This document shows positions 5,441-37,635 of a stretch of 39,699 bases of DNA, piece after piece. Origin of the DNA: Dongiaceae bacterium (GTDB taxonomy: Bacteria > Pseudomonadota > Alphaproteobacteria > Dongiales > Dongiaceae); contig JBGPEQ010000001.1 of the NCBI GenBank assembly GCA_041482855.1, forward strand, positions 1 to 39,699, in the 5' to 3' direction. The translations under genes were made by a program, and so were the position numbers. Every line of letters starts with the position of its first letter. The stretch's first letter is position 1. The notes under the pieces were generated by a model. It was not told where the DNA came from and made no database searches. It saw only the letters and a program-made list of their open reading frames with translations.

Positions 5441-5911
5441 ATGGTTAGCCTCGTGTCCGTGATTCTCAATGGCGTGGTCATCGTGCTGCTGTGCGCGGCC
5501 ATCGTCTTCGGCATCCGGCTGCATCGGCGCCTGGTGGCGCTGCAATCGGCGCAGTCGGAGTTCGCCGCCCTGCTGGGCCGCCTCGACGGCGCCCTCGTGC
5601 AGGCCAGCTCGACCGTGAGCGCCCTCAAATATAATGCCGCCCGCCAGATCGAGACTTCGCTGCCCCGTCCGACTGCCGCGTCGACGCCGACGTCGCGCCC
5701 AGCCGCCGCGCCGACGCCCCAGCCGATCGCGCCGGAGGCGCGTCACCCGGCTGCCGTCGAGATGATCAAGACCGCCCCGAACAAGGTCGAGGTGGCGAAG
5801 CCGGCGCCCGCCCGCCGCCGCCGCTCGCCTGCCAGCCTGATCGCCGGCGAACGGGATACCGCCGCCGATGAACTGATGGCGCTGATGAAGAAGATGCGGA
5901 GCGCCGGTTGA
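5441..5911 (+). CDS. Single-pass membrane protein of unknown function, flagellar-locus associated (DUF6468-like by memory)
   Basis: 156 aa with AGGAGA 7 nt before the ATG. N-terminal TM (VILNGVVIVLLCAAIVFGI) followed by RLHRRLVALQSAQSEFAALL, then a Pro/Ala-rich linker and a basic tail. It sits between fliM and the motE-like gene. Confidence 0.55.
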   Translation: MVSLVSVILNGVVIVLLCAAIVFGIRLHRRLVALQSAQSEFAALLGRLDGALVQASSTVSALKYNAARQIETSLPRPTAASTPTSRPAAAPTPQPIAPEARHPAAVEMIKTAPNKVEVAKPAPARRRRSPASLIAGERDTAADELMALMKKMRSAG

Positions 5912-6712: not shown

Positions 6713-7537
6713 CTAGCGCCGCAGGGACGCCAATCCCAGGATCGTCGACGCATCCAGCGATATTCCGCTGCCAGCAGATGATGACAGGGGCTGGATCAGG
6801 CTCGCCACCGACAGCGTGGCCGGCGCATTCGTCTGGTCGTAGTTGGCGAGGAAGCGGCCGATGAAGTTTTCGAGGAACTTCGGGTCCTTCAGATTGGCGA
6901 GGCCGACGCGCTTTTCCAGCAGCTTGGCCTGGCTGTCGACGCCCGACTGCGTGCCGGCAGGCGGCAGCTGCAGCGCCGTCCGCACGACTTCGTAGAGCGG
7001 CTTGTCGCCCATGATCTGGAACCAACTCGTGGCGGTCGGCGCCGCCCGCTTGAAGTAGAGCGCCAGGCGGATGCCGGGGTTGGTCTGGTCCGTGGTCTTC
7101 TCGAACTCGGCGGTGACGTACTTGTCGACGATGCCGTCGATGAAACTGGATTTCTTCAGATTGGCGTTGCCGCCGGCGTAGAAGTTGAACGCCTTGGCGA
7201 TCTGGAGATAGCGCGGGTCCACGAGCTTGTTGGCGAGCGATTTGGAGTCGGTCGGGTCCTGCTCCAGCACCTTCCTCATGAACGCCTTCGCGTCGATCTG
7301 CGAATCGAGGCCATAGGCCGACAGCACGACGCGGAACAGGCGGTAGTTCTTCACCAGGTCGTCGGCGCTCGTGACCTTGGCGATGGCGGTCTTGAAATAG
7401 TCGATCTCGCGCTTGACGGGTCCGCTCTTGCGGGACGCCGCCGTCTGCTTGTCGATCGACGCCTCGACCATGCGATAGCCGAGCGTCGCCGCCATGCTCG
7501 GCTGGGCATCGCTGGAACCCGTCAGGGCGTCGATCAT
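6713..7537 (-). CDS. DUF1217 domain protein (flagellar-locus associated)
   Basis: 274 aa. Block IDYFKTAIAKVTSADDLVKNYRLFRVVLSAYGLDSQIDAKAFMRKVLEQDPTDSKSLANKL matches the DUF1217 pattern, and a second half-repeat is present (LYEVVRTALQLP..). The longer track ORF 6678..7589 is an Arg-rich alternate frame. Confidence 0.75.
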   Translation of the reverse strand: MIDALTGSSDAQPSMAATLGYRMVEASIDKQTAASRKSGPVKREIDYFKTAIAKVTSADDLVKNYRLFRVVLSAYGLDSQIDAKAFMRKVLEQDPTDSKSLANKLVDPRYLQIAKAFNFYAGGNANLKKSSFIDGIVDKYVTAEFEKTTDQTNPGIRLALYFKRAAPTATSWFQIMGDKPLYEVVRTALQLPPAGTQSGVDSQAKLLEKRVGLANLKDPKFLENFIGRFLANYDQTNAPATLSVASLIQPLSSSAGSGISLDASTILGLASLRR

Positions 7538-7872
7538 TTGTCGGCCCCGGCGGCTTCCTTGTCGGCGCCGTTCTCCAGCGGCTTCGCATTCGGCCTATAC
7601 CCCGGCGGAAAATACATCACGACGTCGCCGGTGGCCATGTCGACAACCTCCGTGATGATCCGCATCGTTTCGGCATGGATGTGGACCTGATAGCGGCCCG
7701 CCATCTCCGCATTCTGACGCGCAGCAGCACGCGTCTCCGGCAAGGAGGGCGTGCTGAGGTGCGGCTCCGGCGTCGCCGGGCGCGGCTGGCTCTCGCCCGG
7801 GAGCGGCGGGCGGTGAATCTCACCGAAGGGGTTGGCGGCGGCCGATCCGACAGTATCGATGGCTTGGGTCAT
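7534..7872 (-). CDS. flaG: FlaG-family flagellar protein
   Basis: 112 aa. C-terminal YQVHIHAETMRIITEVVDMATGDVVMYFPPGY matches the FlaG signature (x-V-D-x-x-T-G-E/D-V-I-x-Q-I-P). 4-nt overlaps with both neighbours. Confidence 0.65.
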   Translation of the reverse strand: MTQAIDTVGSAAANPFGEIHRPPLPGESQPRPATPEPHLSTPSLPETRAAARQNAEMAGRYQVHIHAETMRIITEVVDMATGDVVMYFPPGYRPNAKPLENGADKEAAGADK

Positions 7873-9846: not shown

Positions 9847-9861
9847 TTAACCGGCAGTTAA
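9847..9861. promoter_or_regulatory. CtrA-box-like site TTAACCGGCAGTTAA (TTAA-N7-TTAA)
   Basis: Exact TTAA-N7-TTAA. It lies 112 nt upstream of the flagellin start (minus strand) and 143 nt upstream of the plus-strand ORF at 10004. It shares the 9-mer TTAACCGGC with the sites at 33470-33484 and 26488-26503 (reverse strand). The identity of the binding protein is inferred. Confidence 0.4.
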
Positions 9862-10003: not shown

Positions 10004-10519
10004 GTGATCGACACGAGCCCTCAGATAACGCGGCAGATCGCCCATCAGGCGGTCGAGAACACGCACCATCTGGATACTTCGCGTGAGAAGGGCAGAACCC
10101 ACCTCGACGACCCGCCGCAGGATTTCACCCTCGACGACTTCCTCGACATCATCAATCCGCTCCAGCACCTGCCGATCGTCAGCGTGATCTACCGCGCGCT
10201 CACCGGCGACGAGATCAAACCGGGCATGCGCATCCTCGGCGACATTGCCTATGGCGGGCCCACCGGGTTCATGTCCTCTTGTGCGCAGGTCCTGTTCGAG
10301 GCGATCTTCGGTAACGACATCGGCGGCACCGCCATTTCCCTGCTCACAGGCGGCGACGATGACAAGAAGAGCGCGAAGATCGCGTCGGCGACCATCGACC
10401 CCTCCGCTCAGCTGGCGTCGACCGATCCGTCGGTGCCGGTGCCGGTGCTGGATCCGGCCCGGGCGGACGCTACGGCTGCATACGCCACCTTCACGAAGAA
10501 GGTCGGCACTAGCCGCTGA
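10004..10519 (+). CDS. Conserved-looking hypothetical protein (no family assigned)
   Basis: 171 aa with a GTG start as given by the track. High third-position GC. Distinctive block DFLDIINPLQHLPIVSVIYRALTGDEIKPGMRILGDIAYGGPTGF. Convergent with flgL, with an 18-nt gap. Confidence 0.55.
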   Translation: MIDTSPQITRQIAHQAVENTHHLDTSREKGRTHLDDPPQDFTLDDFLDIINPLQHLPIVSVIYRALTGDEIKPGMRILGDIAYGGPTGFMSSCAQVLFEAIFGNDIGGTAISLLTGGDDDKKSAKIASATIDPSAQLASTDPSVPVPVLDPARADATAAYATFTKKVGTSR

Positions 10520-10537: not shown

Positions 10538-11584
10538 TTACAGAAACTTCGTGAGGCTCAGCTCGTTCATGCGGGCAGTGATGGAGAAGGTCGCCTCGAG
10601 CTGGGTCTGCAGCTGACTCAGGCGCAGCGACGTCTCGTATGGATCGGCCGCCTCGAGGTTGGCGACCTGATTGTTGAGCTGCGCGATCGTGGCATCGTGC
10701 CGTGTCGACGCGTCGGCCACCACCGACTGCTTGAAGCCAAGCTCGGCGGACACGTCGATCGCTCCTTGAAAGCCCGCGCTGATGTGCTTCACGGCTTCGT
10801 CCTGCCAGGCGGCGAAGGCGTCGTCGGGGACGGAGCCGTAGGGCACGCTGGCCAGCATGGACAGTCCCTGCTGCAGCTCGCGGAAGGCCGGATTGTCGGC
10901 GCGCACGCCATAGTCGATCTGGTAGCCGTTGTCGAGACGGGCGGTCACCGAGCCGGTGCTGGCGCCGTTGTAGAACGTCGCGGAGTAGTTCAGGTTCGGG
11001 TTGCTGTTGGTATCGTTGAACATCGAGCTGATGCCGTCCGGGCCGTTGGCCACGGCGAGCGCCGACGCCGCGTCGGTGATCGGGCCGAGATTGGCGATGA
11101 CCTGGCTGACCGCCTGCTGCGGTGACAATCCGCTCGTGGCATTGACGGCCGTGGTCGCCTGCATCGGCGCCAGGTTGGTCTGAATGCCGGAGAACAAGGT
11201 GCGGCCGGCGACCTCGGCGTTCAGGAACGAATTGATGCGATCGAGGGCAGTCGACGCCGCCTCCTGCAGATAGCGGCGCGAGACCGAATCCCGCGCGGTG
11301 AGCGCCGTGCTGCGCATCTGGTCGGCGATGTCGCGTACGCCGCCGAGCGCCGCCTGCATGGTATCCATGCGCGAGGCGACGATGTCGGTGGTGCCCTTGA
11401 ACTCGGTGACGTCGTTGAGGGCGTTGCGCAGATCGACGTCTTCGGCCGCGCGGTCGCGCAGCGCCGCCACCAGATCGGCCTTGCGGCCGGTGGATATCTC
11501 CTTCTGGGCGTCCATCAGCTGGCTCTGCAGCGAGCGGATGCTGCTGTTGAGCTGCAGGTGCGAGGCGAGGGTCGAGATATACAT
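10538..11584 (-). CDS. flgL: Hook-filament junction protein FlgL (HAP3)
   Basis: 348 aa. Flagellin-like termini (LQLNSSIRSLQSQLMDAQKEISTGRK ... LRLSQLQTQLEATFSITARMNELSLTKFL). AGGAGA Shine-Dalgarno. Follows flgK. Confidence 0.88.
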   Translation of the reverse strand: MYISTLASHLQLNSSIRSLQSQLMDAQKEISTGRKADLVAALRDRAAEDVDLRNALNDVTEFKGTTDIVASRMDTMQAALGGVRDIADQMRSTALTARDSVSRRYLQEAASTALDRINSFLNAEVAGRTLFSGIQTNLAPMQATTAVNATSGLSPQQAVSQVIANLGPITDAASALAVANGPDGISSMFNDTNSNPNLNYSATFYNGASTGSVTARLDNGYQIDYGVRADNPAFRELQQGLSMLASVPYGSVPDDAFAAWQDEAVKHISAGFQGAIDVSAELGFKQSVVADASTRHDATIAQLNNQVANLEAADPYETSLRLSQLQTQLEATFSITARMNELSLTKFL

Positions 11585-14426: not shown

Positions 14427-15191
14427 TCAGGCGGCGGACTTGACGGAAACGGCCTCGTCGACGGTCTGCGCTTCATAGGCAACCACGACGAAACGGCCCT
14501 CCTGACGCACGCGTTCGGGATCGGTGAAGCGATAGCCCTGGCCGGGGAAGGTCTGAATATAGTCCTCGCCGCCGGAGAAGGCGCGGAGCTTCTTGCGCAC
14601 CTTGCACATCATGACGTCGACGGTCTTCTCGTCGACCTGGCTGCTGTTGTAGCCGTAGATGTAGTTGTAGATGAAGCGGCGGTTGACGATGCGGCCCTGC
14701 CGCAGCACCAGGCACTCCAGCAGCTCGCGCTCGCGGCGGCTGACCTTCACGGTCTTGCCGCTGATCGAGGGCATGCGGCCGTCGAAGAAGTAGGTGAAAT
14801 TTCCCACCGCGTGCGACAGGCTGACATGGCCGTTGATGCGGCGGGCGATGCCGCGCAGGCGCGCTGCCATCTCCGCCATGTTCACCGGCTTGGCCAGCAC
14901 GTCGTCGGCGCCGGCATTGATCAGCTCGACCGCCTGCGTGGAATTGCGGAACGACTGCAGCACCAGCACGGGCACGCCGATGCGGCGGTGGCGCAGCGCC
15001 TCGATGAAGCGGACCACGTCGATCTTGCTGTGGGGAACGGTGATGACGACCGCTTCGCAACCCTGGGCCGTCGCTTCGATGAGGTCGTCCATCTCGTAGT
15101 CGACCGCATCGCAGGCAACGCCATTCCGAATGAGTCCGGCCTTCAGTGCTTCGGCCGCCACAATCTCTTCGTCTATCAATACGACTCGCAT
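14427..15191 (-). CDS. ftcR: OmpR-type winged-helix regulator with degenerate receiver domain (FtcR/Rem/LafR-like flagellar master regulator)
   Basis: 254 aa. Receiver-like N-terminus (MRVVLIDEE..VPVLVLQS..VLAKPV) plus Trans_reg_C (LSRRERELLECLVLRQGRIVNRRFIYNYIYG..DEKTVDVMMCKVRKKL..IQTFPGQGYRF). Sits directly upstream of flgE. Aligned to CheY by hand, the phospho-acceptor position (FVISDWNMP) reads AVVITVPHS, i.e. Thr rather than Asp. Confidence 0.7.
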   Translation of the reverse strand: MRVVLIDEEIVAAEALKAGLIRNGVACDAVDYEMDDLIEATAQGCEAVVITVPHSKIDVVRFIEALRHRRIGVPVLVLQSFRNSTQAVELINAGADDVLAKPVNMAEMAARLRGIARRINGHVSLSHAVGNFTYFFDGRMPSISGKTVKVSRRERELLECLVLRQGRIVNRRFIYNYIYGYNSSQVDEKTVDVMMCKVRKKLRAFSGGEDYIQTFPGQGYRFTDPERVRQEGRFVVVAYEAQTVDEAVSVKSAA

Positions 15192-15735: not shown

Positions 15736-16884
15736 ATGCGGATGACGAACGATCGGTCGCGCCTGTTGAAAGCGGTCCGGCTTGCCGGCGCCGTGCTGGC
15801 GCTGTTGCTGGTCGGCGCGCTCGCGCCGGCGCCGGCGGCGGCGCAGGTGCGCATCAAGGATATCGCCAGCTTCGAAGGCGTGCGCGACAACCTGCTGGTC
15901 GGTTACGGCCTGGTGGTCGGCCTCAACGGCACCGGCGACAACCTCTCGAATTCGCCGTTCACCCAGCAGTCGATCATCGGCATGCTCGAGCGGCTCGGCG
16001 TCAACATCCGCGGCGAGAACTTCAAGCCGAAGAACGTCGCCGCCGTCATGGTCACCGCCACCCTGCCGCCGTTCTCGCGCGAGGGCTCGCGCATCGACAT
16101 CACCGCCTCCGCCATCGGCGACGCCAAGAGCCTGCAGGGCGGCACCCTCCTGGTGACGCCGCTCATGGGCGCCGACGGCCAGGTCTACGCGGTCAGCCAG
16201 GGCCCGGTCGCCATCGCCGGCTTCAGCGCCGAGGGCGACGCCGCCAGCGTAACCAAGGGCACCCCCACCAACGGCCGCATCGCCAGCGGCGCCGTGATCG
16301 AGCGCGAGATCCCCTTCGCGCTCTCCGACCTGCAGCAGGTGCGGATCGCCCTCCACAATCCGGATTTCACGACGGCCTCCCGCATGGCCGCGGTCATCAA
16401 CGCCAAGCTCGGCGGCCCGGTCGCGCAAGCCACCGATCCGACTACCGTCACCATGACGGTCCCGCAGAGCTATGGCGCCGACGTGGCGCGCCTCATCACC
16501 GACGTCGAGCAGCTGCGCCTCATCCCCGACCAGGTCTCGCGTGTCGTCATCGACGAGCGCACGGGCACCATCGTCATGGGCGACAATGTGAGCATCAGCA
16601 CGGTCGCGATCTCGCAAGGCAACCTCACGGTCCGCATCACCGAAACGCCCCAGGTCTCCCAGCCCGAGCCGTTCAGCCAGCAGGGCGACACCGCGGTGGT
16701 GCCGCGCACCAACGTGGACGTAACCGAGGGCGGCACCGGCAACATCGCCATCGTCGGCGGCGCCTCGCTCAACGACCTCGTCCAGGGCCTCAACGCGCTC
16801 GGCGTCACGCCGCGCGACATGATCGCGATCCTGCAGGCGATCAAGGCCGCGGGCGCGCTCCAGGCCGAAATCGAAGTGATGTAG
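15736..16884 (+). CDS. flgI: Flagellar P-ring protein FlgI
   Basis: 382 aa. Signal peptide ending APAAAA|QV, then VRIKDIASFEGVRDNLLVGYGLVVGLNGTGD, SAIGDAKSLQGGTLLVTPL, and C-terminal LNALGVTPRDMIAILQAIKAAGALQAEIEVM. An alternative ATG is at 15742. Confidence 0.95.
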   Translation: MRMTNDRSRLLKAVRLAGAVLALLLVGALAPAPAAAQVRIKDIASFEGVRDNLLVGYGLVVGLNGTGDNLSNSPFTQQSIIGMLERLGVNIRGENFKPKNVAAVMVTATLPPFSREGSRIDITASAIGDAKSLQGGTLLVTPLMGADGQVYAVSQGPVAIAGFSAEGDAASVTKGTPTNGRIASGAVIEREIPFALSDLQQVRIALHNPDFTTASRMAAVINAKLGGPVAQATDPTTVTMTVPQSYGADVARLITDVEQLRLIPDQVSRVVIDERTGTIVMGDNVSISTVAISQGNLTVRITETPQVSQPEPFSQQGDTAVVPRTNVDVTEGGTGNIAIVGGASLNDLVQGLNALGVTPRDMIAILQAIKAAGALQAEIEVM

Positions 16885-16895
16885 GCGAAAGCGCC

Positions 16896-17207
16896 ATGGA
16901 TCCCATCGCCGCTAAACCCGCTGCTGCGCAGCCCGCCACGGCCCAGCCGGCCGCGCCCGCCATCGACCGCAACAGCCCCACCTACAAGGCGGCGCAGGAT
17001 TTCGAGTCCGTGTTCCTGGGACAGATGGTCGAGCAGATGTACACCGGCCTCGATGCGAAAGGCCCGTTCGGCGGCGGCTTCGCGGAAAAAACTTACCGCT
17101 CCCTGCTCGATCAGGAAATCGGCCGCCAGATGTCGGCCAGCGGCGGCGTCGGCATCGCCGATGCGGTCTATGCGGAAATGGTCAAGCTTCAAGGAGGCGT
17201 GAAATGA
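16896..17207 (+). CDS. flgJ: Rod-binding protein FlgJ (N-terminal domain only; CheL-like)
   Basis: 103 aa. Rod_binding motif AAQDFESVFLGQMVEQMY..FAEKTYRSLLDQEIGRQMSASGGVGIAD. No muramidase domain. Confidence 0.8.
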   Translation: MDPIAAKPAAAQPATAQPAAPAIDRNSPTYKAAQDFESVFLGQMVEQMYTGLDAKGPFGGGFAEKTYRSLLDQEIGRQMSASGGVGIADAVYAEMVKLQGGVK

Positions 17208-17620
17208 CGCGCGCAGCGGCCGACCTGATGGCCAGCATGAAGGCGCTCACCGACGAGGTCGAGGCCGAGACCGGCCTCTTGCGGCGCGGCGAGTTCGCGG
17301 AGATCGGCGACGCCGTGGTCCGCAAGCAGCAGGCGGCGACCCGCTACGAAGAGGCGCTCAAGGCGTTCGCGGCCCAGGCGAAGGTTGCCATCAGCCTGCC
17401 GGAGCGCCTGCGCCGCGACCTGCGCGCCGCCGCCCGGCGCCTGGAAATCGTGCTGAGCGACAACAGCCGCCTCGTCGCCGCCAACCGCGAGGCCAGCACG
17501 CGCCTCATCGGCCGCATCATCGAGGCCGCCAGCCAAAACCCCGCCGCCGGCGGCTACACCGCGGCCGGCAAGCTCGCCGTCGAACCCACCGCCGCCACCG
17601 CCTTCGGCGAACGGGTGTAG
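17204..17620 (+). CDS. FlgN/FlbY-like flagellar protein (function uncertain)
   Basis: 138 aa with an ATGA overlap with flgJ. All-helical, Ala/Arg/Glu-rich (LMASMKALTDEVEAETGLLRRGEFAEIGDAVVRKQQAATRYEEAL). It occupies the position of flbY in the Caulobacter flgI-cheL-flbY operon (established gene order). Family not verified. Confidence 0.45.
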   Translation: MTRAAADLMASMKALTDEVEAETGLLRRGEFAEIGDAVVRKQQAATRYEEALKAFAAQAKVAISLPERLRRDLRAAARRLEIVLSDNSRLVAANREASTRLIGRIIEAASQNPAAGGYTAAGKLAVEPTAATAFGERV

Positions 17621-26487: not shown

Positions 26488-26503
26488 TTACCAGCCGGTT
26501 AAC
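26488..26503. promoter_or_regulatory. CtrA-box-like site upstream of fliK (TTAC-N7-TTAAC; reverse strand GTTAACCGGCTGGTAA)
   Basis: Located in the motB-fliK gap, 71 nt upstream of the fliK start. It has one mismatch to TTAA-N7-TTAAC. The reverse strand carries the same TTAACCGGC 9-mer as the sites at 9847 and 33470. Confidence 0.35.
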
Positions 26504-32626: not shown

Positions 32627-33262
32627 TCAGAGGCTCCAGCCCCGTTCCATCGCCATGCGCACAGCCTGGGTGCGGCTGGTCACGCCGAGCTTGCGGTAGA
32701 TCGAGCGCAGGTGCAGGGCCACGGTCACGACCTCGATACCGAGGCGGTGGCCGATCTCCTTGTTGGATAGCCCCTGTACGAGCAGGCCGATGACCTCGCG
32801 CTCGCGCTGGGTGAGGGACCCCGGGCCGGGCCCACCGCCCGCGCTCTCCTCCGCAGAAGTGGGCTGCCCCGCCACCATGATGTCCGGGATGTAGCGCTCG
32901 CCCGCCAGAATGAGGCGGAGGGCGCTCACCATGGCCGTGCCGCGCATGGTTTTCGGCAGGAAGCCGGCGGCGCCGGCCTGCAGGGCATTGCGGATGGTGT
33001 CGGGATTGGTCTCGCCCGAAAGAATGACGATGGGAACGTTGGCCCGGGCCGCCTGCACGGACTTGAGGCCGGCGAGACCATTCATCCCGGGCATGTGCAG
33101 ATCGAGCAGGACGAGATCGAGGGCGTCGGCCTTGCGGACGAGATCGAGGGCCTGCGACAGGTTGGCCGCATGGAGGACGTGCAGGTCCTTGTCCAGCCGT
33201 TTCAGGAATTCCTCGATGGTGTCGCGGATCAAGTCGTGATCATCGGCGAGGAGAATGCGCAT
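32627..33262 (-). CDS. NarL/FixJ(LuxR)-family response regulator
   Basis: I prefer ATG 33262 (MRILLADDHD); the track uses GTG 33271. Canonical receiver (DLVLLDLHMPG, IVILSG, FLPK) plus a GerE HTH (LTQREREVIGLLVQGLSNKEIGHRLGIEVVTVALHLRSIYRKLGV). Confidence 0.9.
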   Translation of the reverse strand: MRILLADDHDLIRDTIEEFLKRLDKDLHVLHAANLSQALDLVRKADALDLVLLDLHMPGMNGLAGLKSVQAARANVPIVILSGETNPDTIRNALQAGAAGFLPKTMRGTAMVSALRLILAGERYIPDIMVAGQPTSAEESAGGGPGPGSLTQREREVIGLLVQGLSNKEIGHRLGIEVVTVALHLRSIYRKLGVTSRTQAVRMAMERGWSL

Positions 33263-33469
33263 AGCGGTCACCCAACGCGGCAGCTGATTTGAAGGGACAT
33301 TCGGCGATCTTGCAACGGCGTCGCTCTCAAAAAGACTTCGTCATGTACTGCTCTGGCAGCCTGCAAATGAAACTCTTAGAAAACTGACATGCAATCGGCT
33401 ACTATATATAAATTTATGTAGTACCTATACGAATCTATTACTTGAATACACCAAGTAACATTGGCCGCA

Positions 33470-33484
33470 TTAACCGGCATTTAA
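33470..33484. promoter_or_regulatory. CtrA-box-like site TTAACCGGCATTTAA (TTAA-N7-TTAA)
   Basis: Exact TTAA-N7-TTAA inside the 35% GC tract. It lies 117 nt upstream of ORF 33601 and about 208 nt upstream of the divergent response-regulator start (33262). It differs from the flagellin-upstream site (9847-9861) at one position over the 15-nt core. Confidence 0.4.
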
Positions 33485-33600
33485 GCGATTTCGCTGATAA
33501 CGTTCATATTCATTACTGGCCGATCTCACGACCATGGCCTGCAAGAACCGCAGGCGGAGCGTCGGCCGGTAGGACACCTCGGAAAATCCAGAGGTAACGC

Positions 33601-33816
33601 ATGGATGGATACGATCATAGCAATTCCGGACCGCCGGCGGCGGATCCGGGACAATCCGTGGACGGCGAGCGGCGATCGCCGCAGGCGGCAACGGCCAGCG
33701 TGCCGTCCGCCCTGTGCATCGACGACACGGCATTTCACGAACCGAACAACGGGCAGGGCGACGGGAAATCCCGGCGCGCCGCCCCCTGGCCGTTCCTGAT
33801 TCGACGGCTGGGCTGA
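33601..33816 (+). CDS. Possible small ORF (71 aa), no similarity recognised
   Basis: ATG with GAGGT 5 nt upstream. Third-position G/C is high in this frame, whereas the overlapping frames give Arg-rich junk. MDGYDHSNSGPPAADPGQSVDGERRSPQAATASVPSALCIDDTAFHEPNNGQGDGKSRRAAPWPFLIRRLG. It could equally be a 5' leader. Confidence 0.3.
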   Translation: MDGYDHSNSGPPAADPGQSVDGERRSPQAATASVPSALCIDDTAFHEPNNGQGDGKSRRAAPWPFLIRRLG

Positions 33817-33848: not shown

Positions 33849-34235
33849 ATGCAGCAAGTAGAAAATACGCGAAAAATCGATATTCTCGTCCAGCGTGCGC
33901 TGGAGGGCGGCGGCATTGCCGCCAAGCTAGGCCGCGACGGCAGTACGCACAGCCGGACCGCGCGGCCCGCAGGCACGCGCCGCGTTCACAACAATCCGTG
34001 CGAGATTCTGCAGCGGCTCGCGCAGGTCATTCAGCTGATGCGCCTCGACCACGCCGATGCGCATATCTATCGCGATGGCTGCGATATCCTGGTGCAGGAC
34101 GCAGTCGACGCGTCCAAATGGTCGGGATTGCGGCCGGCGCTGGCGCAAATATTGGGTCTGGTCGGGCAGGGCGACTACCATTGCGCCCTCATGGAGCTGC
34201 GGGCGATCTCCCAGCCGGAGTGGCACATATGCTGA
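33849..34235 (+). CDS. Hypothetical protein (128 aa), first clearly coding ORF of the FlgI-like cassette
   Basis: Track ORF 33714..34235 trimmed to ATG 33849 with GGAGA 6 nt upstream. G/C-rich third positions. Its stop overlaps the start of the next ORF (ATATGCTGA). Cys/His-containing C-terminal half (HADAHIYRDGCDILVQD..GDYHCALMELRAISQPEWHIC). No family recognised. Confidence 0.5.
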   Translation: MQQVENTRKIDILVQRALEGGGIAAKLGRDGSTHSRTARPAGTRRVHNNPCEILQRLAQVIQLMRLDHADAHIYRDGCDILVQDAVDASKWSGLRPALAQILGLVGQGDYHCALMELRAISQPEWHIC

Positions 34236-34831
34236 GCGCGCCGACGAAGATTCGCCGTCACCGGGCGGCGGTTGCTGCGCTGGCTGCCGCCCTGACGCTG
34301 TCGGCGCTTGCGCCGCTTGCGCGCGCCGATGACAGTGGAACGTCGAAACTGGCCTCCGCCGCCAGCGAACAGGGTATGCTCGTCGGCGTCGGCGTCGTGA
34401 TCGGCCTGCCCGGGACCGGAGACAGCGCGATCGACGCCAACGCCATCGAGTCCTCGATCATCGGCATCCTCAAGCGGGCCGGGCTGGAGCCCTGGCGCGA
34501 CCAGATCAAGCCGGGCCGCGTCGCCGTGGTGATACTGAGCGCCCAGCTTCCGGATGGCGCCGGCGACGGCACCAAGATCGCCGTCAGCGTCAGCGCGATC
34601 GGCGATGCCCGCAGCATCGCCGGCGGTACCTTGCTCGTCGCCCCGCTGCGCGACGCCGACGGAACCGTTCATGCCATCGGCCAGGGGCTGATCGCCGCGG
34701 GCGGTACGCCGACCGCATCCGTCGTGACCGTCGCTGTGGACGCCGGCATGCGGACGGGCGAGCTCACCCAGGGTACGGTCATCAAGCATCAGACGGTCGC
34801 CCCTCGCAACTATGCGTCGTTGACGCCGTAG
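34229..34831 (+). CDS. Secreted FlgI N-terminal-domain paralog (200 aa; lacks the C-terminal half of FlgI)
   Basis: Track ORF 33998..34831 trimmed to ATG 34229. Signal peptide MLSAPTKIRRHRAAVAALAAALTLSALAPLARA|DD. An ungapped hand alignment to FlgI (15736-16884) gives 52/110 identities (LVGxGxVxGLxGTGD, SIIGxLxRxG, SAIGDAxS, GGTLLVxPL, ADGxVxA). Similarity ends near FlgI residue ~205 and the stop follows 13 codons later. Confidence 0.7.
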   Translation: MLSAPTKIRRHRAAVAALAAALTLSALAPLARADDSGTSKLASAASEQGMLVGVGVVIGLPGTGDSAIDANAIESSIIGILKRAGLEPWRDQIKPGRVAVVILSAQLPDGAGDGTKIAVSVSAIGDARSIAGGTLLVAPLRDADGTVHAIGQGLIAAGGTPTASVVTVAVDAGMRTGELTQGTVIKHQTVAPRNYASLTP

Positions 34832-35187
34832 TCTGCAGGAAGGCGATCGCGGACCTGGCGGACGGCGGCATCTTCCGCCGAAGGAAAAGATGGAATTTTG
34901 CATGGTGCTATATTGTCTATATTTCAGTATGTCATACCGGCTTGTTCGAGGTGTATTGTAAGTTTGACTTACTATTAAGGCGTTCTGCTGCATTATTGCT
35001 CTGATAATACTGTCGTCGTCATCGCTCCGACGATCGACTGATCGCAGAACGCGAGGTACGCAAGTGGAAGTATGGAATGCCGCGCGGGCAGCGAGGCCCG
35101 CCAACGACACGCCAGTTCTCCGCATCGCCGGACCGATGCGTAAGAGTGTGCCAGGCGCCGAATTCTGAGGGTGTCCCGGCGTCACGA

Positions 35188-35251
35188 CCGTCCGGCCTCC
35201 GCACGCGGTTTTTCCTGCCTCCCCGCGTGAACTGCTGCGGAGGCCGGACGG
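35188..35251. repeat. Long perfect hairpin (16-bp stem) in the spacer upstream of the second hybrid kinase
   Basis: CCGTCCGGCCTCCGCA (35188-35203) pairs with TGCGGAGGCCGGACGG (35236-35251), its exact reverse complement. The 32-nt loop contains an inner CGCGG/CCGCG stem and a T5 run. No U-tract follows on either strand. Confidence 0.7.
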
Positions 35252-35417
35252 CGACCAGCTTCCGAGAACAGCTATCCTCTGCGCGGCAGCGGCGCCGGAT
35301 GAAACCGGCGTTACCGCCCGCCCGCCCGCGCCTTCCCGCTTTAGAGTTTGTTAGGCGATTCCGGCTTCCACTCGGCCATGCCTGCGTCTCGGCGACGCGG
35401 CAGGACGATGCGAGAGG

Positions 35418-37037
35418 ATGGCCATCGCCATGTTGGCAGGACGACGTGATGCCCCGGCGCGCCGCGCAAGCAAGGCGATAGGCGAATTGTCGCAGCTTCG
35501 CCTCTTCGAAAGCATTCCCGAGGCCATTCTCGTCCATCACGCCGACGGCGTGCTGTTTGCCAATGCCGCCTGCCTGCGCATGCTGGGCGCGGGGAGCTTC
35601 GAGCAAATCGTCGGCCGCCCGATGCTGGATCGCCTGCATCCGGCCGACCGTCAGCGCATCGAGCGTAAATTCGCGGAGATCAGCGGGTCGCGAAAGCCGT
35701 GCCCGCGGGTCGAGGCGCGGCTGCTGCGATTCGACGGCTCGACCGCCGATGTCGAGGCTTCGGTCACGCCGATCGAGGGGCGCGCACCCGATGAGTTGCT
35801 GGTCGTGCTGCGCGACGTGACCGAGCGCAAGCTGCTCGAGCAGGAGCTGCGCCAGGCGCAGAAGATGGAGGCCCTGGGACAGCTGACCGGCGGCGTCGCC
35901 CATGATTTCAACAACCTGCTGGCGGTGATCACGGGCAACCTCGAGATCGCCGGCGAGCATGCCGAGGGCGTTCCCGTCCTCGATCGCGCCATCAACCGGG
36001 CCATGACGGCGGCCGAGATCGCGGCCGATCTGACCCAGCGCCTGCTGGCGTTCGCGCGCCGCCAGCCGCTGATGCCGCATCTGATCGATGTCAACAGGCT
36101 CGTCCAGGACATGCGCGACCTGCTGCGGCGTTCCCTCGGCGCCGACATCGAGATCGAAATCGTGGCTTGTCCGGATCTCTGGCAGACCAACGCCGATCGC
36201 AGCCAGCTCGAGAACTCCATCATCAATCTCGCCGTCAACGCCCGCGATGCCATGCCCGCAGGCGGCAAGCTCACGATCGAGACCGCCAACATCTATCTCG
36301 ACAGCGACTATGCGCGGCGCAATCCCGGCGTAACGCCCGGCCAGTACGTGCTGCTGGAAGTCAGCGACACCGGCACCGGCATGGAGGCCGACGTAGCCGA
36401 CCGCGCCTTCGAACCGTTCTTCACCACCAAGGAGGTCGATGAGGGCAGCGGTCTCGGCCTCAGCATGATCTACGGCTTCGCCCGCCAGTCGGGCGGCCAC
36501 GTAAAGATCTTCAGCGCGGAGAATCACGGCACCAGCGTGTGGCTGTGCCTGCCGAGGGCGGAGACGGAGGAAACGGTGGCGGCGCCTGTCGGGGCTCCGT
36601 CGCAGCTGCCGCGCGGCCACGAGACGATCCTGGTGGTCGAGGACAATGCAGCCGTGCGCGAGGTCGTCGTCACACAGCTGGAGAGCCTGGGCTATCGGGT
36701 GATTTCCGCCGAGGACGGTCCGGCCGCCTTGCGCTTGCTGGCCGAGACCGCCGGCATCGGCCTCCTGTTCACCGATCTCGTCATGCCGAACGGCCTGAGC
36801 GGCCGCCACCTTGCCGAGGAGGTCGTGCGCATACGGCCGGGCACCCGCGTTCTCTTCACGTCGGGGTATCCGAGCTGGGCTGGCAAACTGGTGATGGAGT
36901 TCGGGCCGGGTGGGCCGCTGTTGCAAAAGCCCTACAAGAAAAAGCAGCTGGCCGAGAAGGTACGGGAAGTGCTGGACGCTCCGGCCGGCGACCCGCCGGC
37001 CGTAATTGCGGAGCCGATCGGCGCCGAACGCCCCTGA
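35418..37037 (+). CDS. Soluble hybrid sensor histidine kinase (PAS, HisKA, HATPase_c, receiver)
   Basis: 539 aa with no hydrophobic segments. PAS (LFESIPEAILVHHADGVLFANAACLRMLG). H-box [26 protein letters not shown] boxes ([38 protein letters not shown]). Receiver (ILVVEDNAAV..GLLFTDLVMPN..LQKPY). An alternative ATG at 35430 has better SD spacing. Paralog of 20965-23313. Confidence 0.9.
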   Translation: MAIAMLAGRRDAPARRASKAIGELSQLRLFESIPEAILVHHADGVLFANAACLRMLGAGSFEQIVGRPMLDRLHPADRQRIERKFAEISGSRKPCPRVEARLLRFDGSTADVEASVTPIEGRAPDELLVVLRDVTERKLLEQELRQAQKMEALGQLTGGVAHDFNNLLAVITGNLEIAGEHAEGVPVLDRAINRAMTAAEIAADLTQRLLAFARRQPLMPHLIDVNRLVQDMRDLLRRSLGADIEIEIVACPDLWQTNADRSQLENSIINLAVNARDAMPAGGKLTIETANIYLDSDYARRNPGVTPGQYVLLEVSDTGTGMEADVADRAFEPFFTTKEVDEGSGLGLSMIYGFARQSGGHVKIFSAENHGTSVWLCLPRAETEETVAAPVGAPSQLPRGHETILVVEDNAAVREVVVTQLESLGYRVISAEDGPAALRLLAETAGIGLLFTDLVMPNGLSGRHLAEEVVRIRPGTRVLFTSGYPSWAGKLVMEFGPGGPLLQKPYKKKQLAEKVREVLDAPAGDPPAVIAEPIGAERP

Positions 37038-37083: not shown

Positions 37084-37635
37084 TCAAGAGCCGATGTTCG
37101 TGATCACCACACGGCGGTTGACGCCATTGTTCGGATCGCCCGGATCGGCAAGGTCGGACTCCCCGACGCCGCTCGCTTCCAGGCGCGCCGCGTCGACGTG
37201 GAACTGGTCGATCAGATAGTCCTTCACGGACGCCGCGCGCGCCTCCGAGAGCTTGAGATTGGCGGCATCGGACCCGACCGCGTCGGTGTGGCCGACGAGA
37301 CTGAATTGATAGGCCGCCAGCTGGTCCGATTGCAACGCGGCGCCCAGCTCATTGAGAACGGCCTTCGCGCTGCCCGTCAGCTTGGCCGAGCCGAATTCGA
37401 ACTGGATGCGCATGTCCTTCTGGGGCGCTGCGCTCGTCTCTTCGGTCCCTTGCGTTCCCTGCGTCCCCTGGTTCGACAGGGTGAGACCGCGGGTCTTTGG
37501 CGCCAGGGCGTCGATGAAGTCCTGTTTCGTCTGGCCCTGCATGTCGTCCGCGTAGGCCGGGAGCGCGATCGGCGCGGCCATCGATGCGCCCAGGAACAGC
37601 GCCACCGCCGCAATCAACAGGCTCTTGCGTGTCAT
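37084..37635 (-). CDS. OmpA-family peptidoglycan-binding protein (secreted, 183 aa)
   Basis: Signal peptide MTRKSLLIAAVALFLGASMAAPIALPAYA. OmpA_C block FEFGSAKLTGSAKAVLNELGAAL..FSLVGHTDAVGSDAANLKLSEARAASVKDYL..NRRVVI. Short QGTQGTQGT repeat in the linker. Confidence 0.85.
   Translation of the reverse strand: MTRKSLLIAAVALFLGASMAAPIALPAYADDMQGQTKQDFIDALAPKTRGLTLSNQGTQGTQGTEETSAAPQKDMRIQFEFGSAKLTGSAKAVLNELGAALQSDQLAAYQFSLVGHTDAVGSDAANLKLSEARAASVKDYLIDQFHVDAARLEASGVGESDLADPGDPNNGVNRRVVITNIGS

Follow-up and report, generated by a model that had tools for sequence, protein, structure and literature searches.

A conserved short FlgI paralog with an apparently IRU-only architecture, encoded in a three-gene operon of Dongiaceae-like soil alphaproteobacteria

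FlgI is usually regarded as a single-purpose, three-domain ring subunit, which builds the 26-mer P ring encircling the distal rod. The rod and LP-ring region to which it belongs is extended in some lineages by motor accessories, often co-regulated with flagellar genes: MotX/MotY form the T ring, FlgT the H ring, and FlgP the basal disk, and YecR is located on the Salmonella LP ring. To our knowledge, none of these accessories is derived from FlgI. Within Salmonella FlgI, the upper-inner-ring β-barrel domain (IRU) comprises residues 12–159 (PMC8298488). It faces the rod and, together with its neighbor, builds the pockets in which FlgH docks; IRU domains also touch their neighbors laterally within the P ring. 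The hydrophobic FlgH-docking pocket is formed by I18, L22, M46, L50, L103, and M104, and the polar P-ring loop approaches a negatively charged rod, with K63 and K95 as the rod-facing basic residues. Second copies of flgI and flgH, all full-length, occur in the dual-flagellar Shewanella putrefaciens and Plesiomonas shigelloides (PMC7183148).

We analyzed a 39,699-nucleotide stretch of a Dongiaceae genome (hereafter, the window) that encodes a second, short FlgI-family protein in addition to a canonical FlgI. The short gene closes a conserved three-gene operon, which runs from a small ORF through a helical protein resembling the C-terminal part of FlbT to the short FlgI. The operon is flanked by flhA and a response regulator on one side and by a PAS hybrid kinase on the other. 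The relevant features are as follows.

15736–16884, forward strand: canonical full-length FlgI with all three domains, in the same flagellar cluster; the reference paralog
32627–33271, reverse strand: LuxR/NarL-type response regulator, transcribed away from the operon, with conserved synteny in related loci
33470–33484, forward strand: CtrA-type box TTAACCGGCATTTAA (TTAA-N7-TTAA) upstream of the operon; a motif match
33500–33600, forward strand: highly conserved leader with invariant columns in 10 loci
33576–33595, forward strand: leader hairpin (ACCUCGG-AAAAU-CCAGAGGU) in which the Shine-Dalgarno sequence of the small ORF is base-paired
33601–33816, forward strand: small first ORF, 71 aa (69–102 aa in related loci)
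33849–34235, forward strand: partner gene, 128 aa; the basic N-terminus varies, and the C-terminal four-helix bundle is conserved
34229–34831, forward strand: short FlgI gene, 200 aa plus stop; last gene of the three-gene operon
34229–34327, forward strand: short FlgI residues 1–33, Sec-type signal peptide, judged by reading
Short FlgI residues 34–48, forward strand: Ala-rich linker with low model confidence
34373–34792, forward strand: short FlgI residues 49–188, FlgI-IRU β-barrel domain
Short FlgI residues 189–200, forward strand: short tail
35418–37037, forward strand: CckA-like PAS hybrid histidine kinase, soluble, on the downstream side of the operon

A sequence-only reading had described the ORF at 34229–34831 as an orphan gene for a secreted N-terminal half of FlgI. 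The 200-codon frame was coding-like, with a GC3 of 0.86 in a window of approximately 67% GC, and the gapless alignment with the FlgI encoded at 15736–16884, counted by hand in that reading, was recovered by BLASTP (52 of 111 identities [47%], 69% positives, no gaps, E = 1e-29). The short FlgI matched the Pfam FlgI profile (PF02119) with 108.4 bits against a cut-off of 25.3. As the reading had expected, coverage was partial: residues 48–188 corresponded to profile positions 13–154 of 343 only, and the canonical FlgI of the window spanned positions 1–343 of 343 with 475 bits. Scores with the NCBIfam FlgI models were 108 bits (cut-off 300), 83 bits (cut-off 557), and 32 bits (cut-off 444), and the match fell short of the full OR, IRU, and IRL architecture of approximately 343 model positions. 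In the HMMER alignment, the short FlgI corresponded to residues 13–155 of mature Salmonella FlgI; the similarity ended at GTVIKHQ (residue 155), the point noted in the reading, and the stop codon followed 12 codons later. The first approximately 11 mature residues of FlgI, containing the RIKDI strand, were also absent. The description as a partial FlgI thus stood, whereas the term N-terminal half did not, since the retained part corresponds to the IRU domain alone and also lacks the first strand.

Structural prediction agreed with this assignment. The AF2 model had a core pLDDT of about 88, and a Foldseek search with it returned only FlgI chains of LP-ring structures (7cbl, 7bgl, 7nvg, and 8z5n; E = 4e-10 to 4e-9 over approximately 140 columns), which identified the IRU β-barrel fold. 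The signal region showed an n-h-c pattern with AxA before the cleavage site (between ARA and DD), kept by reading across the family alignment; the n-region of some members contains RR, so that Tat export is also possible for those. Compared with FlgI (PF02119; Salmonella structures 7CLR, 7CBL, and 7BGL), the short protein shares clear homology, the IRU fold, a putative N-terminal signal peptide, and invariant GTGD and GGTLL motifs, but contains one of three domains in approximately 200 rather than 370 aa, is encoded beside a normal flgI, and forms a clade of its own.

Missing are the OR domain on the peptidoglycan side, to which the first strand of FlgI belongs, and the IRL domain, which closes the ring. 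Downstream of the gene, the GC content falls to 0.49, consistent with the AT-rich, non-coding DNA reported previously, and with FlgI residues 206–382 as the tblastn query, no match in the window or in 21 related loci had an E-value below 1. A split FlgI with the missing domains in a neighboring ORF was rejected, because tblastn found no OR or IRL coding sequence in the 21 loci; flanking ORFs in locus L086 and an extra ORF in L004 likewise showed no similarity to FlgI. We also considered whether the neighboring OmpA-domain protein stands in for the OR domain, which is speculative: its gene borders the type VI secretion (T6SS) cluster just as much, and P0092 and the divergent clade 2 have no copy nearby. 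The short FlgI is very probably a single-domain, IRU-only protein cut at both domain boundaries.

The gene is no orphan. We found about 115 protein clusters at 90% identity, nearly all of 176–228 aa, and the lengths were bimodal: loci at least 45% identical all stopped short, and those at most 43% identical all contained ORFs of 363–452 aa. Reading frames were checked in 21 related loci, and all 19 that reached the end of the gene stopped at the same short position (175–211 aa). Phylogenetically, the short proteins formed a single, deeply diverged clade against 29 canonical FlgI sequences. The median dN/dS of the IRU core was 0.18, similar to the 0.13–0.17 of the flanking regulator, kinase, and OmpA genes; in L004, the short FlgI was 52% identical and FlhA 84%, and the short FlgI therefore evolves faster than its neighbors. 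The more than 100 related sequences come from uncultured soil alphaproteobacteria, and the family is conserved and monophyletic in Dongiaceae-like members of this group. A scan of GTDB genomes yielded one locus, in a MAG labeled Candidatus Acidoferrum that is probably mis-binned. No flagellar cluster surrounds the most divergent members (clade 2, comprising P0108, P0113, and relatives) or P0092, and none of these has an overlapping partner; therefore, the domain can persist without flagellar linkage.

These data bear on whether the ORF is a functionless pseudogene fragment or a scar of a recent flgI duplication, as might be suspected from the remaining part of FlgI and the scores far under the NCBIfam cut-offs. 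A short length common to about 115 clusters, the identical stop position in 19 of 19 loci, purifying selection on the core, the deep monophyletic divergence, and the retained signal peptide (by reading) and partner overlap all contradict this explanation, which is effectively refuted. The outcome by which the sequence-only reading would have abandoned its own proposal, namely uniformly full-length relatives with frame-broken C-terminal relics downstream, was looked for and not found; instead, the short length (21 loci) and the upstream partner were both conserved. Its view that the gene is maintained and is not a scar of duplication accordingly holds, and we regard the maintenance of this ORF as close to certain. 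Literature searches for a FlgI that is short, truncated, or paralogous gave no relevant report.

Next, we focused on the other two genes of the operon. The start of the short FlgI gene overlaps the stop of the partner gene by 7 nt (ATGCTGA), as noticed in the initial reading, and all 15 loci whose sequence extends far enough upstream have the same overlap. The partner family comprised 51 clusters, and the dN/dS of its C-terminal domain was 0.16. FlbT, together with FlaF, is an alphaproteobacterial post-transcriptional regulator of flagellin, and a bona fide flaF-flbT pair is also encoded in the window. The partner scored 19.4 bits against Pfam FlbT (PF07378), below the cut-off of 27 and over profile positions 52–121 only; 12 of 12 partner orthologs also matched this profile, all below the cut-off (best E = 2.4e-5), and hhalign aligned the partner with the FlbT of the window at 84.6% probability (E = 6.9e-6). 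The conserved C-terminal 66–70 residues of the partner thus align with FlbT positions of about 52–121, whereas a variable basic segment takes the place of the N-terminal half of FlbT. Foldseek with the partner structure found generic four-helix bundles only and no specific relative in the PDB, and a sequence search of the PDB gave no match. The likeness, known from sequence and from Pfam scores that are all under the cut-off, suggests that the partner is remotely homologous to the C-terminal half of FlbT only. In the small first ORF, the start codon, the Shine-Dalgarno sequence, and the C-terminus (...IRRLG-stop) were conserved, and the body was variable and likely disordered; its dN/dS was 0.60, and it had no match in Pfam or NCBIfam.

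Upstream of the operon, the TTAA-N7-TTAA box corresponds to the consensus box of the CtrA regulon. This pattern had two matches in the window, where 0.01 were expected, and was invariant and the sole such box in each of 13 related loci. The half-site TTAACCGGC occurred only three times in the window, always upstream of flagellar operons; it recurs at 9847 and, on the reverse strand, at 26494, upstream of flagellin and fliK. A CtrA-like paralog is encoded at 14427–15191 (130 bits against a cut-off of 350). From these motif matches, the operon appears to belong to the flagellar regulon and is probably read by a CtrA-family regulator such as this paralog. Scans for sigma-70 promoters and terminators found nothing. 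The leader was predicted to fold with a minimum free energy of −44.4 kcal/mol (z = −4.1), and the hairpin pairs were kept in 9 of 10 loci with little covariation. For the AT-rich flanks, Rfam gave sub-threshold noise only, and we rejected the idea that they contain a known RNA family.

The genomic contexts were then compared. The genes flhA-fliR-flhB-motAB adjoin the locus in the window and in L001, L003, L004, L005, and L018, and adjacency to flhA is kept in every long locus of the main clade. The PAS hybrid kinase keeps its position in most related loci, L011 being without it; a pair of response regulator and hybrid kinase similar to that of the window adjoins the gene in L088. At this locus the flagellar cluster meets the T6SS cluster, beside a gene for a secreted OmpA-domain protein, and the flagellar adjacency could be partly coincidental given this T6SS border. 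The second FlgI-family gene in one genome recalls the dual-flagellar species; however, their flgI copies are full-length, paired with a second flgH, and part of a second flagellar system, whereas no flgH paired with the short FlgI was found in the window or in the flanks of related loci (4–10 kb per side where the contig allowed).

To compare the functional surfaces, we mapped the family onto Salmonella FlgI. In the FlgH-docking pocket, M46, invariant in the 29 canonical FlgI sequences, is V, I, or L in the short family, and L50 is replaced by Ala in 30 of 31 members; the other pocket residues remain hydrophobic, and the pocket as such is not conserved. The short family has a new invariant Trp (W89) and, in the rod-facing P-ring loop, an invariant Asp (D69). 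The equivalent of K95 is Arg (R128) in the main clade, whereas clade 2 has lost the basic residue there. At the K63 position the family has Gly, as do 8 of the 29 canonical sequences, and the adjacent N64 is replaced by a family-specific R or K; R97, another basic residue near the rod-facing positions, is kept in the main clade. The sequence-only reading had suggested that the protein could nucleate, cap, or poison P-ring assembly or build a different periplasmic ring. Judged from the alignment, the altered FlgH pocket and rod-facing loop argue against a simple FlgI mimic, and since these surfaces are remodeled, the short FlgI is more likely a neofunctionalized binder than a plain mimic.

Taken together, the sequence evidence suggests that the short FlgI is a so far undescribed protein that assists or regulates flagellar assembly, and we consider a flagellum-related role fairly probable. 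The mechanism that we propose within this role is tentative. The protein would be exported by Sec to the periplasm, where its most likely role is that of an accessory or modulator of rod/LP-ring assembly; it would dock via surfaces inherited from the IRU domain, most plausibly through lateral IRU–IRU contacts with FlgI; it would be unable to anchor to peptidoglycan or to close a ring. As a compromise between the well-supported identity and the weaker mechanism, we rate the explanation as a whole as evenly balanced. In being lineage-specific and predicted to be secreted, the short FlgI resembles MotX/MotY, FlgT, FlgP, and YecR (partly after PMC7183148), but it derives from FlgI and is known here from sequence and a model. 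The P- and L-ring relics carry an unidentified plug (PMC7183148); the short FlgI is unlikely to be this plug, as plugs are widespread and the family is narrow, and in the ring the IRU usually forms a lining and not a filling.

Three other roles were weighed against a periplasmic modulator. The short FlgI might form a regulated brake, capping a growing P-ring edge, FlgA, or FlgH in a dominant-negative manner and thereby halting new LP-ring assembly, while the co-translated FlbT-like half acts on flagellin translation control in the cytoplasm and the adjacent two-component system switches the module on. Both products are partial paralogs of flagellar proteins that act by binding partners, and their genes are tightly translationally coupled by the overlap; the regulator and kinase flank the operon in most loci, with a similar pair in L088, the Shine-Dalgarno sequence is predicted to be sequestered in the folded leader, and the protein lacks the two domains, OR and IRL, through which FlgI contacts peptidoglycan and makes some of its lateral contacts, all of which would suit such a brake. 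Nevertheless, the systematic changes in the FlgH pocket and rod-facing loop weaken a decoy for FlgH or the rod, the promoter motif common to flagellin and fliK suggests expression with flagellar building rather than at shut-off, and the kinase is missing in L011; we therefore consider the brake unlikely.

The same promoter motif, being common to structural flagellar operons, would fit an extra structural part, in which an IRU–IRU oligomer makes up one more thin ring in the periplasm, encircling the rod or sitting on the P ring, as an elaboration of this lineage with a role like that of the T and H rings or basal disks in other bacteria. By analogy with the lateral IRU contacts in the P ring, and given the retained fold, the confident model, and the basic R97 and R128 (the K95 equivalent) kept in the main clade, such an oligomer is conceivable. 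The invariant Asp in the loop approaching a negatively charged rod, the faster evolution relative to neighboring genes, the position among regulatory-type rather than structural genes, and the divergent clade outside flagellar clusters render it improbable. That clade and P0092, with their non-flagellar neighborhoods, instead favor a neofunctionalized IRU barrel serving as a periplasmic binding module, for example in envelope signaling or the T6SS, with a flagellar linkage that is historical; the remodeled surfaces and the flagellar/T6SS junction beside the secreted OmpA-domain protein point in the same direction. This is also a minor prospect, because the invariant box has a half-site in common with the flagellin and fliK promoters, the partner is FlbT-like, and flhA adjacency is maintained in every long main-clade locus.

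A further, similarly improbable proposal considers the operon as a whole. It may be a two-compartment module of partial flagellar paralogs, with the FlbT-like half directed to flagellin translation control in the cytoplasm and the co-translated, exported IRU-only FlgI to rod/LP-ring assembly in the periplasm, or the IRU-only protein may build a new periplasmic ring. The operon is compact and testable, with its promoter box, leader hairpin, small ORF with a conserved C-terminus, and FlbT-like partner.

The family also flags a systematic mis-annotation, as public sources call these proteins P-ring protein FlgI. Although its importance is limited by a narrow, largely uncultured host range, the short FlgI represents a natural domain dissection of FlgI that is useful for structural and assembly studies. 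It presents the rod- and FlgH-facing domain of FlgI as a conserved, predicted secreted, and separately regulated protein beside a normal flgI, and suggests an extra lineage-specific layer, so far undescribed, in LP-ring assembly or a periplasmic motor part. If either the two-compartment or the new-ring reading is true, the short FlgI would be the first example of a P-ring domain that works on its own as an assembly factor or regulator.

Translation of the ORF at 34229-34831 (+) gave 200 residues followed by a stop, with a GC3 of 0.86, which is coding-like for the ~67% GC window; GC was ~0.49 immediately 3' of the gene. BLASTP against the canonical FlgI of the window (15736-16884, +) reproduced an earlier hand count of identities (52/111, no gaps, E = 1e-29). 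The Pfam FlgI model matched this protein, hereafter short FlgI, with 108 bits (cut-off 25.3), and the match was confined to residues 48-188 and profile positions 13-154 of 343, in agreement with the partial domain coverage previously noted. The canonical gene covered the entire model. Scores of short FlgI against the NCBIfam FlgI models were far under the naming cut-offs, and public sources name such proteins P-ring protein FlgI.

In mature Salmonella FlgI, the upper inner-ring domain (IRU) comprises residues 12-159, the peptidoglycan-side domain (OR) residues 1-11 and 160-230, and the ring-closing domain (IRL) residues 231-346; the IRU is a beta-barrel that adjoins the rod via K63, K95, and loop 33-36, and with the neighbouring IRU it forms hydrophobic pockets holding the N-terminal chain of FlgH (PMC8298488). 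HMMER aligned residues 47-188 of short FlgI to mature Salmonella residues 13-155, and by this alignment short FlgI is therefore the IRU domain, with the homology ending at both domain borders. Neither the first FlgI strand (RIKDI...) nor the OR or IRL domain was present. With 34 family members as input, AlphaFold gave a confident model for residues 50-155 (pLDDT ~88), and a Foldseek search of the PDB with this model matched only FlgI chains of LP-ring structures. Loop 160-175 was modelled with low confidence, and the equivalent stretch is likewise unresolved in the Salmonella cryo-EM model (PMC8298488). By inspection, the N-terminus was signal-peptide-like with an AxA site conserved across the family, consistent with the retained signal peptide proposed earlier.

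The sequence-only reading had described an orphan paralogue of the N-terminal half of FlgI. The homology to FlgI held, but "half" gave way to a single domain and "orphan" to ~115 related clusters at 90% identity in a large protein collection. These clusters were 50-87% identical to the query, almost all of them 176-228 aa long. An HMM scan of all 1.84 billion representatives delimited ~13 clusters at 50% identity as the short family, followed by a score drop to ordinary FlgI. The length distribution among metagenome loci was bimodal: every locus at ≥45% identity (L001-L021) was short, with a stop at 175-211 aa in all 19 that reached the gene end, and every locus at ≤43% identity carried a FlgI ORF of 363-452 aa. 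Neighbour-joining analysis of the region common to both types recovered all 31 short sequences as a single clade separate from 29 canonical FlgI sequences, with a mean identity of 64% within the clade and a depth about equal to that of the sampled canonical proteins. Selection was estimated by the Nei-Gojobori method from pairs with dS of 0.1-0.7.

dN/dS of short FlgI and flanking genes
Short FlgI: 0.18 (barrel core), 0.31 (whole gene)
Flanking genes: 0.13 (response regulator), 0.17 (kinase), 0.17 (OmpA gene)

A tblastn search with FlgI residues 206-382, covering the window and 21 related loci, found no C-terminal relic 3' of the short gene. The conserved short length, the lack of relics, the core dN/dS of 0.18, and the single clade exclude the refuting scenario set out earlier (only full-length flgI in relatives and frame-broken relics here); a pseudogene is extremely improbable and the earlier view of a maintained gene rather than a duplication scar is upheld.

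Next, the 31 short and 29 canonical sequences were compared at the surface residues named in PMC8298488. M46 of the FlgH inner pocket, invariant in canonical FlgI, was V/I/L in the short family, and L50 was replaced by Ala in 30 of the 31 members. A new Trp (W89; Salmonella position 56) was invariant, the P-ring loop carried an invariant Asp in place of the Asn, Ser, or Gly of canonical proteins, N64 was replaced by Arg or Lys, and the K95 position was Arg in the main clade and lost in a divergent one. The fold was thus kept while the rod-facing and FlgH-facing surface was altered in a family-specific manner, which fits the acquisition of another binding role better than simple FlgI mimicry. 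FlgI is the closest known entity; however, short FlgI showed neither its three-domain architecture nor its conserved FlgH-pocket residues, and is therefore treated here as a derived single-domain family, not a P-ring protein. Full-text literature searches on truncated, paralogous, or FlgI-like proteins and on FlgI-IRU found no description of such a family.

The window carries an alphaproteobacterial flagellar cluster whose closest named relatives are Dongiaceae MAGs, and the short-FlgI gene lies just past flhA.

Gene order of the flagellar cluster and the short-FlgI locus
Cluster, part 1: fliP, fliN, fliH, fliF, fliL, fliM; then flbT, flaF, flagellin
Cluster, part 2: flgL, flgK, flgE; CtrA-like regulator; flgI, flgJ-like rod-binding gene
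Cluster, part 3: flgD, fliK, motB, motA; then flhB, fliR, flhA
Locus, left: LuxR-type response regulator (-), small ORF, partner gene, short FlgI
Locus, right: PAS hybrid kinase, OmpA-domain gene (-), glycosyltransferase (-), then type VI secretion (T6SS) cluster

This local order was conserved in loci with FlhA 84-95% identical to that of the window; the kinase was absent in L011. The OmpA-domain gene (37084-37635, -; a secreted protein) and the GT4 glycosyltransferase gene separate the locus from the T6SS cluster (tssA, tssB, tssC...), seen in related contigs L001/L003/L004 past the right end of the window; thus, the operon lies at a flagellar/T6SS junction. In L003 (contig_94804), flhA, fliR/flhB, and T6SS sheath genes appeared split into several gene calls, probably by assembly frameshifts; short FlgI and its partner were intact. 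Within the flagellar cluster, ORFs 10004-10519 (+), 5441-5911 (+), 7534-7872 (-), and 17204-17620 (+) had coding-like GC3 and no Pfam/NCBIfam match.

Short FlgI is translationally coupled to an FlbT-like protein. The overlap of its start with the stop of the 128-codon partner ORF (33849-34235, +), already recognized from the sequence, was 7 nt (ATGCTGA) in 15/15 loci. The partner family was similarly narrow (51 clusters), and its highly conserved last ~80 residues (dN/dS 0.16) were predicted to form a four-helix bundle. Pfam FlbT matched weakly in 12/12 tested members (profile positions 52-121), and hhalign against the window's own FlbT gave 84.6% probability; the partner is therefore likely a remote homologue of the FlbT C-terminal half. 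In Caulobacter, FlbT and the flagellin FljJ repress flagellin translation until secretion starts (PMC7591256). The small ORF (33601-33816, +) had a conserved start codon, Shine-Dalgarno sequence, and C-terminal ...IRRLG-stop, extended to ...(W/Y)(P/A)(F/V/A)(L/I)IRRLG-stop across the window and the orthologues of L003-L018, with a variable body (69-102 aa; dN/dS 0.60), a pattern resembling that of regulatory leader/arrest peptides or a disordered secreted regulator. Locus L004 encoded an additional 120-aa ORF directly 3' of short FlgI (10738-11100), whose C-terminus (...DAGNLAGALTTLRAIAA) is like the C-terminal motif of the partner; BLAST detected no similarity between the two, and this ORF is possibly another paralogue of the partner.

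Among the non-coding DNA of the locus, conservation was highest in a ~130 bp block upstream of the small ORF, starting with TTAACCGGCATTTAA, a CtrA-type TTAA-N7-TTAA box. Such boxes occurred twice in the window (0.01 expected), and this one was the sole box in each of 13 related loci. The exact half-site TTAACCGGC occurred three times in the window, always upstream of flagellar operons, making it part of a putative promoter element common to these and the short-FlgI operon.

Occurrences of TTAACCGGC
33470-33484: upstream of the short-FlgI operon
9847-9861: intergenic, divergent flagellin/ORF 10004 region
26488-26502 (-): 71-85 nt upstream of fliK (fliK-flgD)

The sites at 33470-33484 and 9847-9861 are full boxes differing at a single base; ORF 10004 lies downstream of the latter. 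The CtrA-like paralogue encoded at 14427-15191 scored 130 bits (cut-off 350). The leader (33500-33600) was conserved in all 10 aligned loci with a stable fold (z -4.1). Within its conserved hairpin (33576-33595; GGA in the loop), the small ORF's Shine-Dalgarno sequence is base-paired, so that translation may be controlled here; covariation was small because the sequence is nearly invariant. At the motif level, box and leader point to a putative place of the operon in the flagellar regulon and suggest that it is also controlled post-transcriptionally.

Two further elements lie between short FlgI and the kinase. An AT-rich block (34880-35020) conserved among close relatives (alignment A4), with no Rfam match, probably either serves the kinase gene as regulatory DNA or encodes a small RNA that has not been annotated. 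A long conserved hairpin (~35186-35254; MFE -55.8 kcal/mol, z -5.2) has a perfect 16-bp stem (CCGUCCGGCCUCCGCA/UGCGGAGGCCGGACGG) and compensatory changes in L001 and L014, and was rejected as a classical terminator because it has no T-tail.

Neither the divergent clade (P0108, P0113, and relatives) nor P0092 had the overlapping partner, and both lay in different surroundings; P0092 likewise adjoined a PAS hybrid kinase and a LuxR regulator. Members of the divergent clade (P0117, P0119-P0123, P0131; L086 4719-5252, L087, P0113 contig) carried GLDLW instead of GLEPW and had lost the K95 equivalent. Its readable neighbourhoods (P0108 in L086/L087; P0113 contig) were non-flagellar, with a 90-99 aa ORF directly 3' replacing the upstream FlbT-like partner.

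Short FlgI is thus a maintained, signal-peptide-bearing, IRU-only FlgI paralogue. We propose that it would be exported to the periplasm and there assist or modulate the rod/LP-ring, docking via inherited IRU surfaces. As it has no OR or IRL domain, peptidoglycan anchoring and ring closure would be beyond it. An additional structural ring, with which the kept barrel fold is compatible, is unlikely. A regulated dominant-negative brake on assembly, with which the putative operon control is compatible, is about equally unlikely; the remodelled FlgH pocket and the acidic loop make a simple decoy of FlgH or the rod less likely. Recruitment of the barrel for a non-flagellar use is unlikely to the same degree; the altered surfaces leave room for it, and the box upstream of the operon is of the kind found at flagellar operons. 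An accessory or modulator at the rod/LP-ring would be our preferred reading. Short FlgI represents a clean, well-supported family that had not been remarked upon before; its operon is intriguing, and its distribution is limited to one narrow lineage, mostly uncultured.
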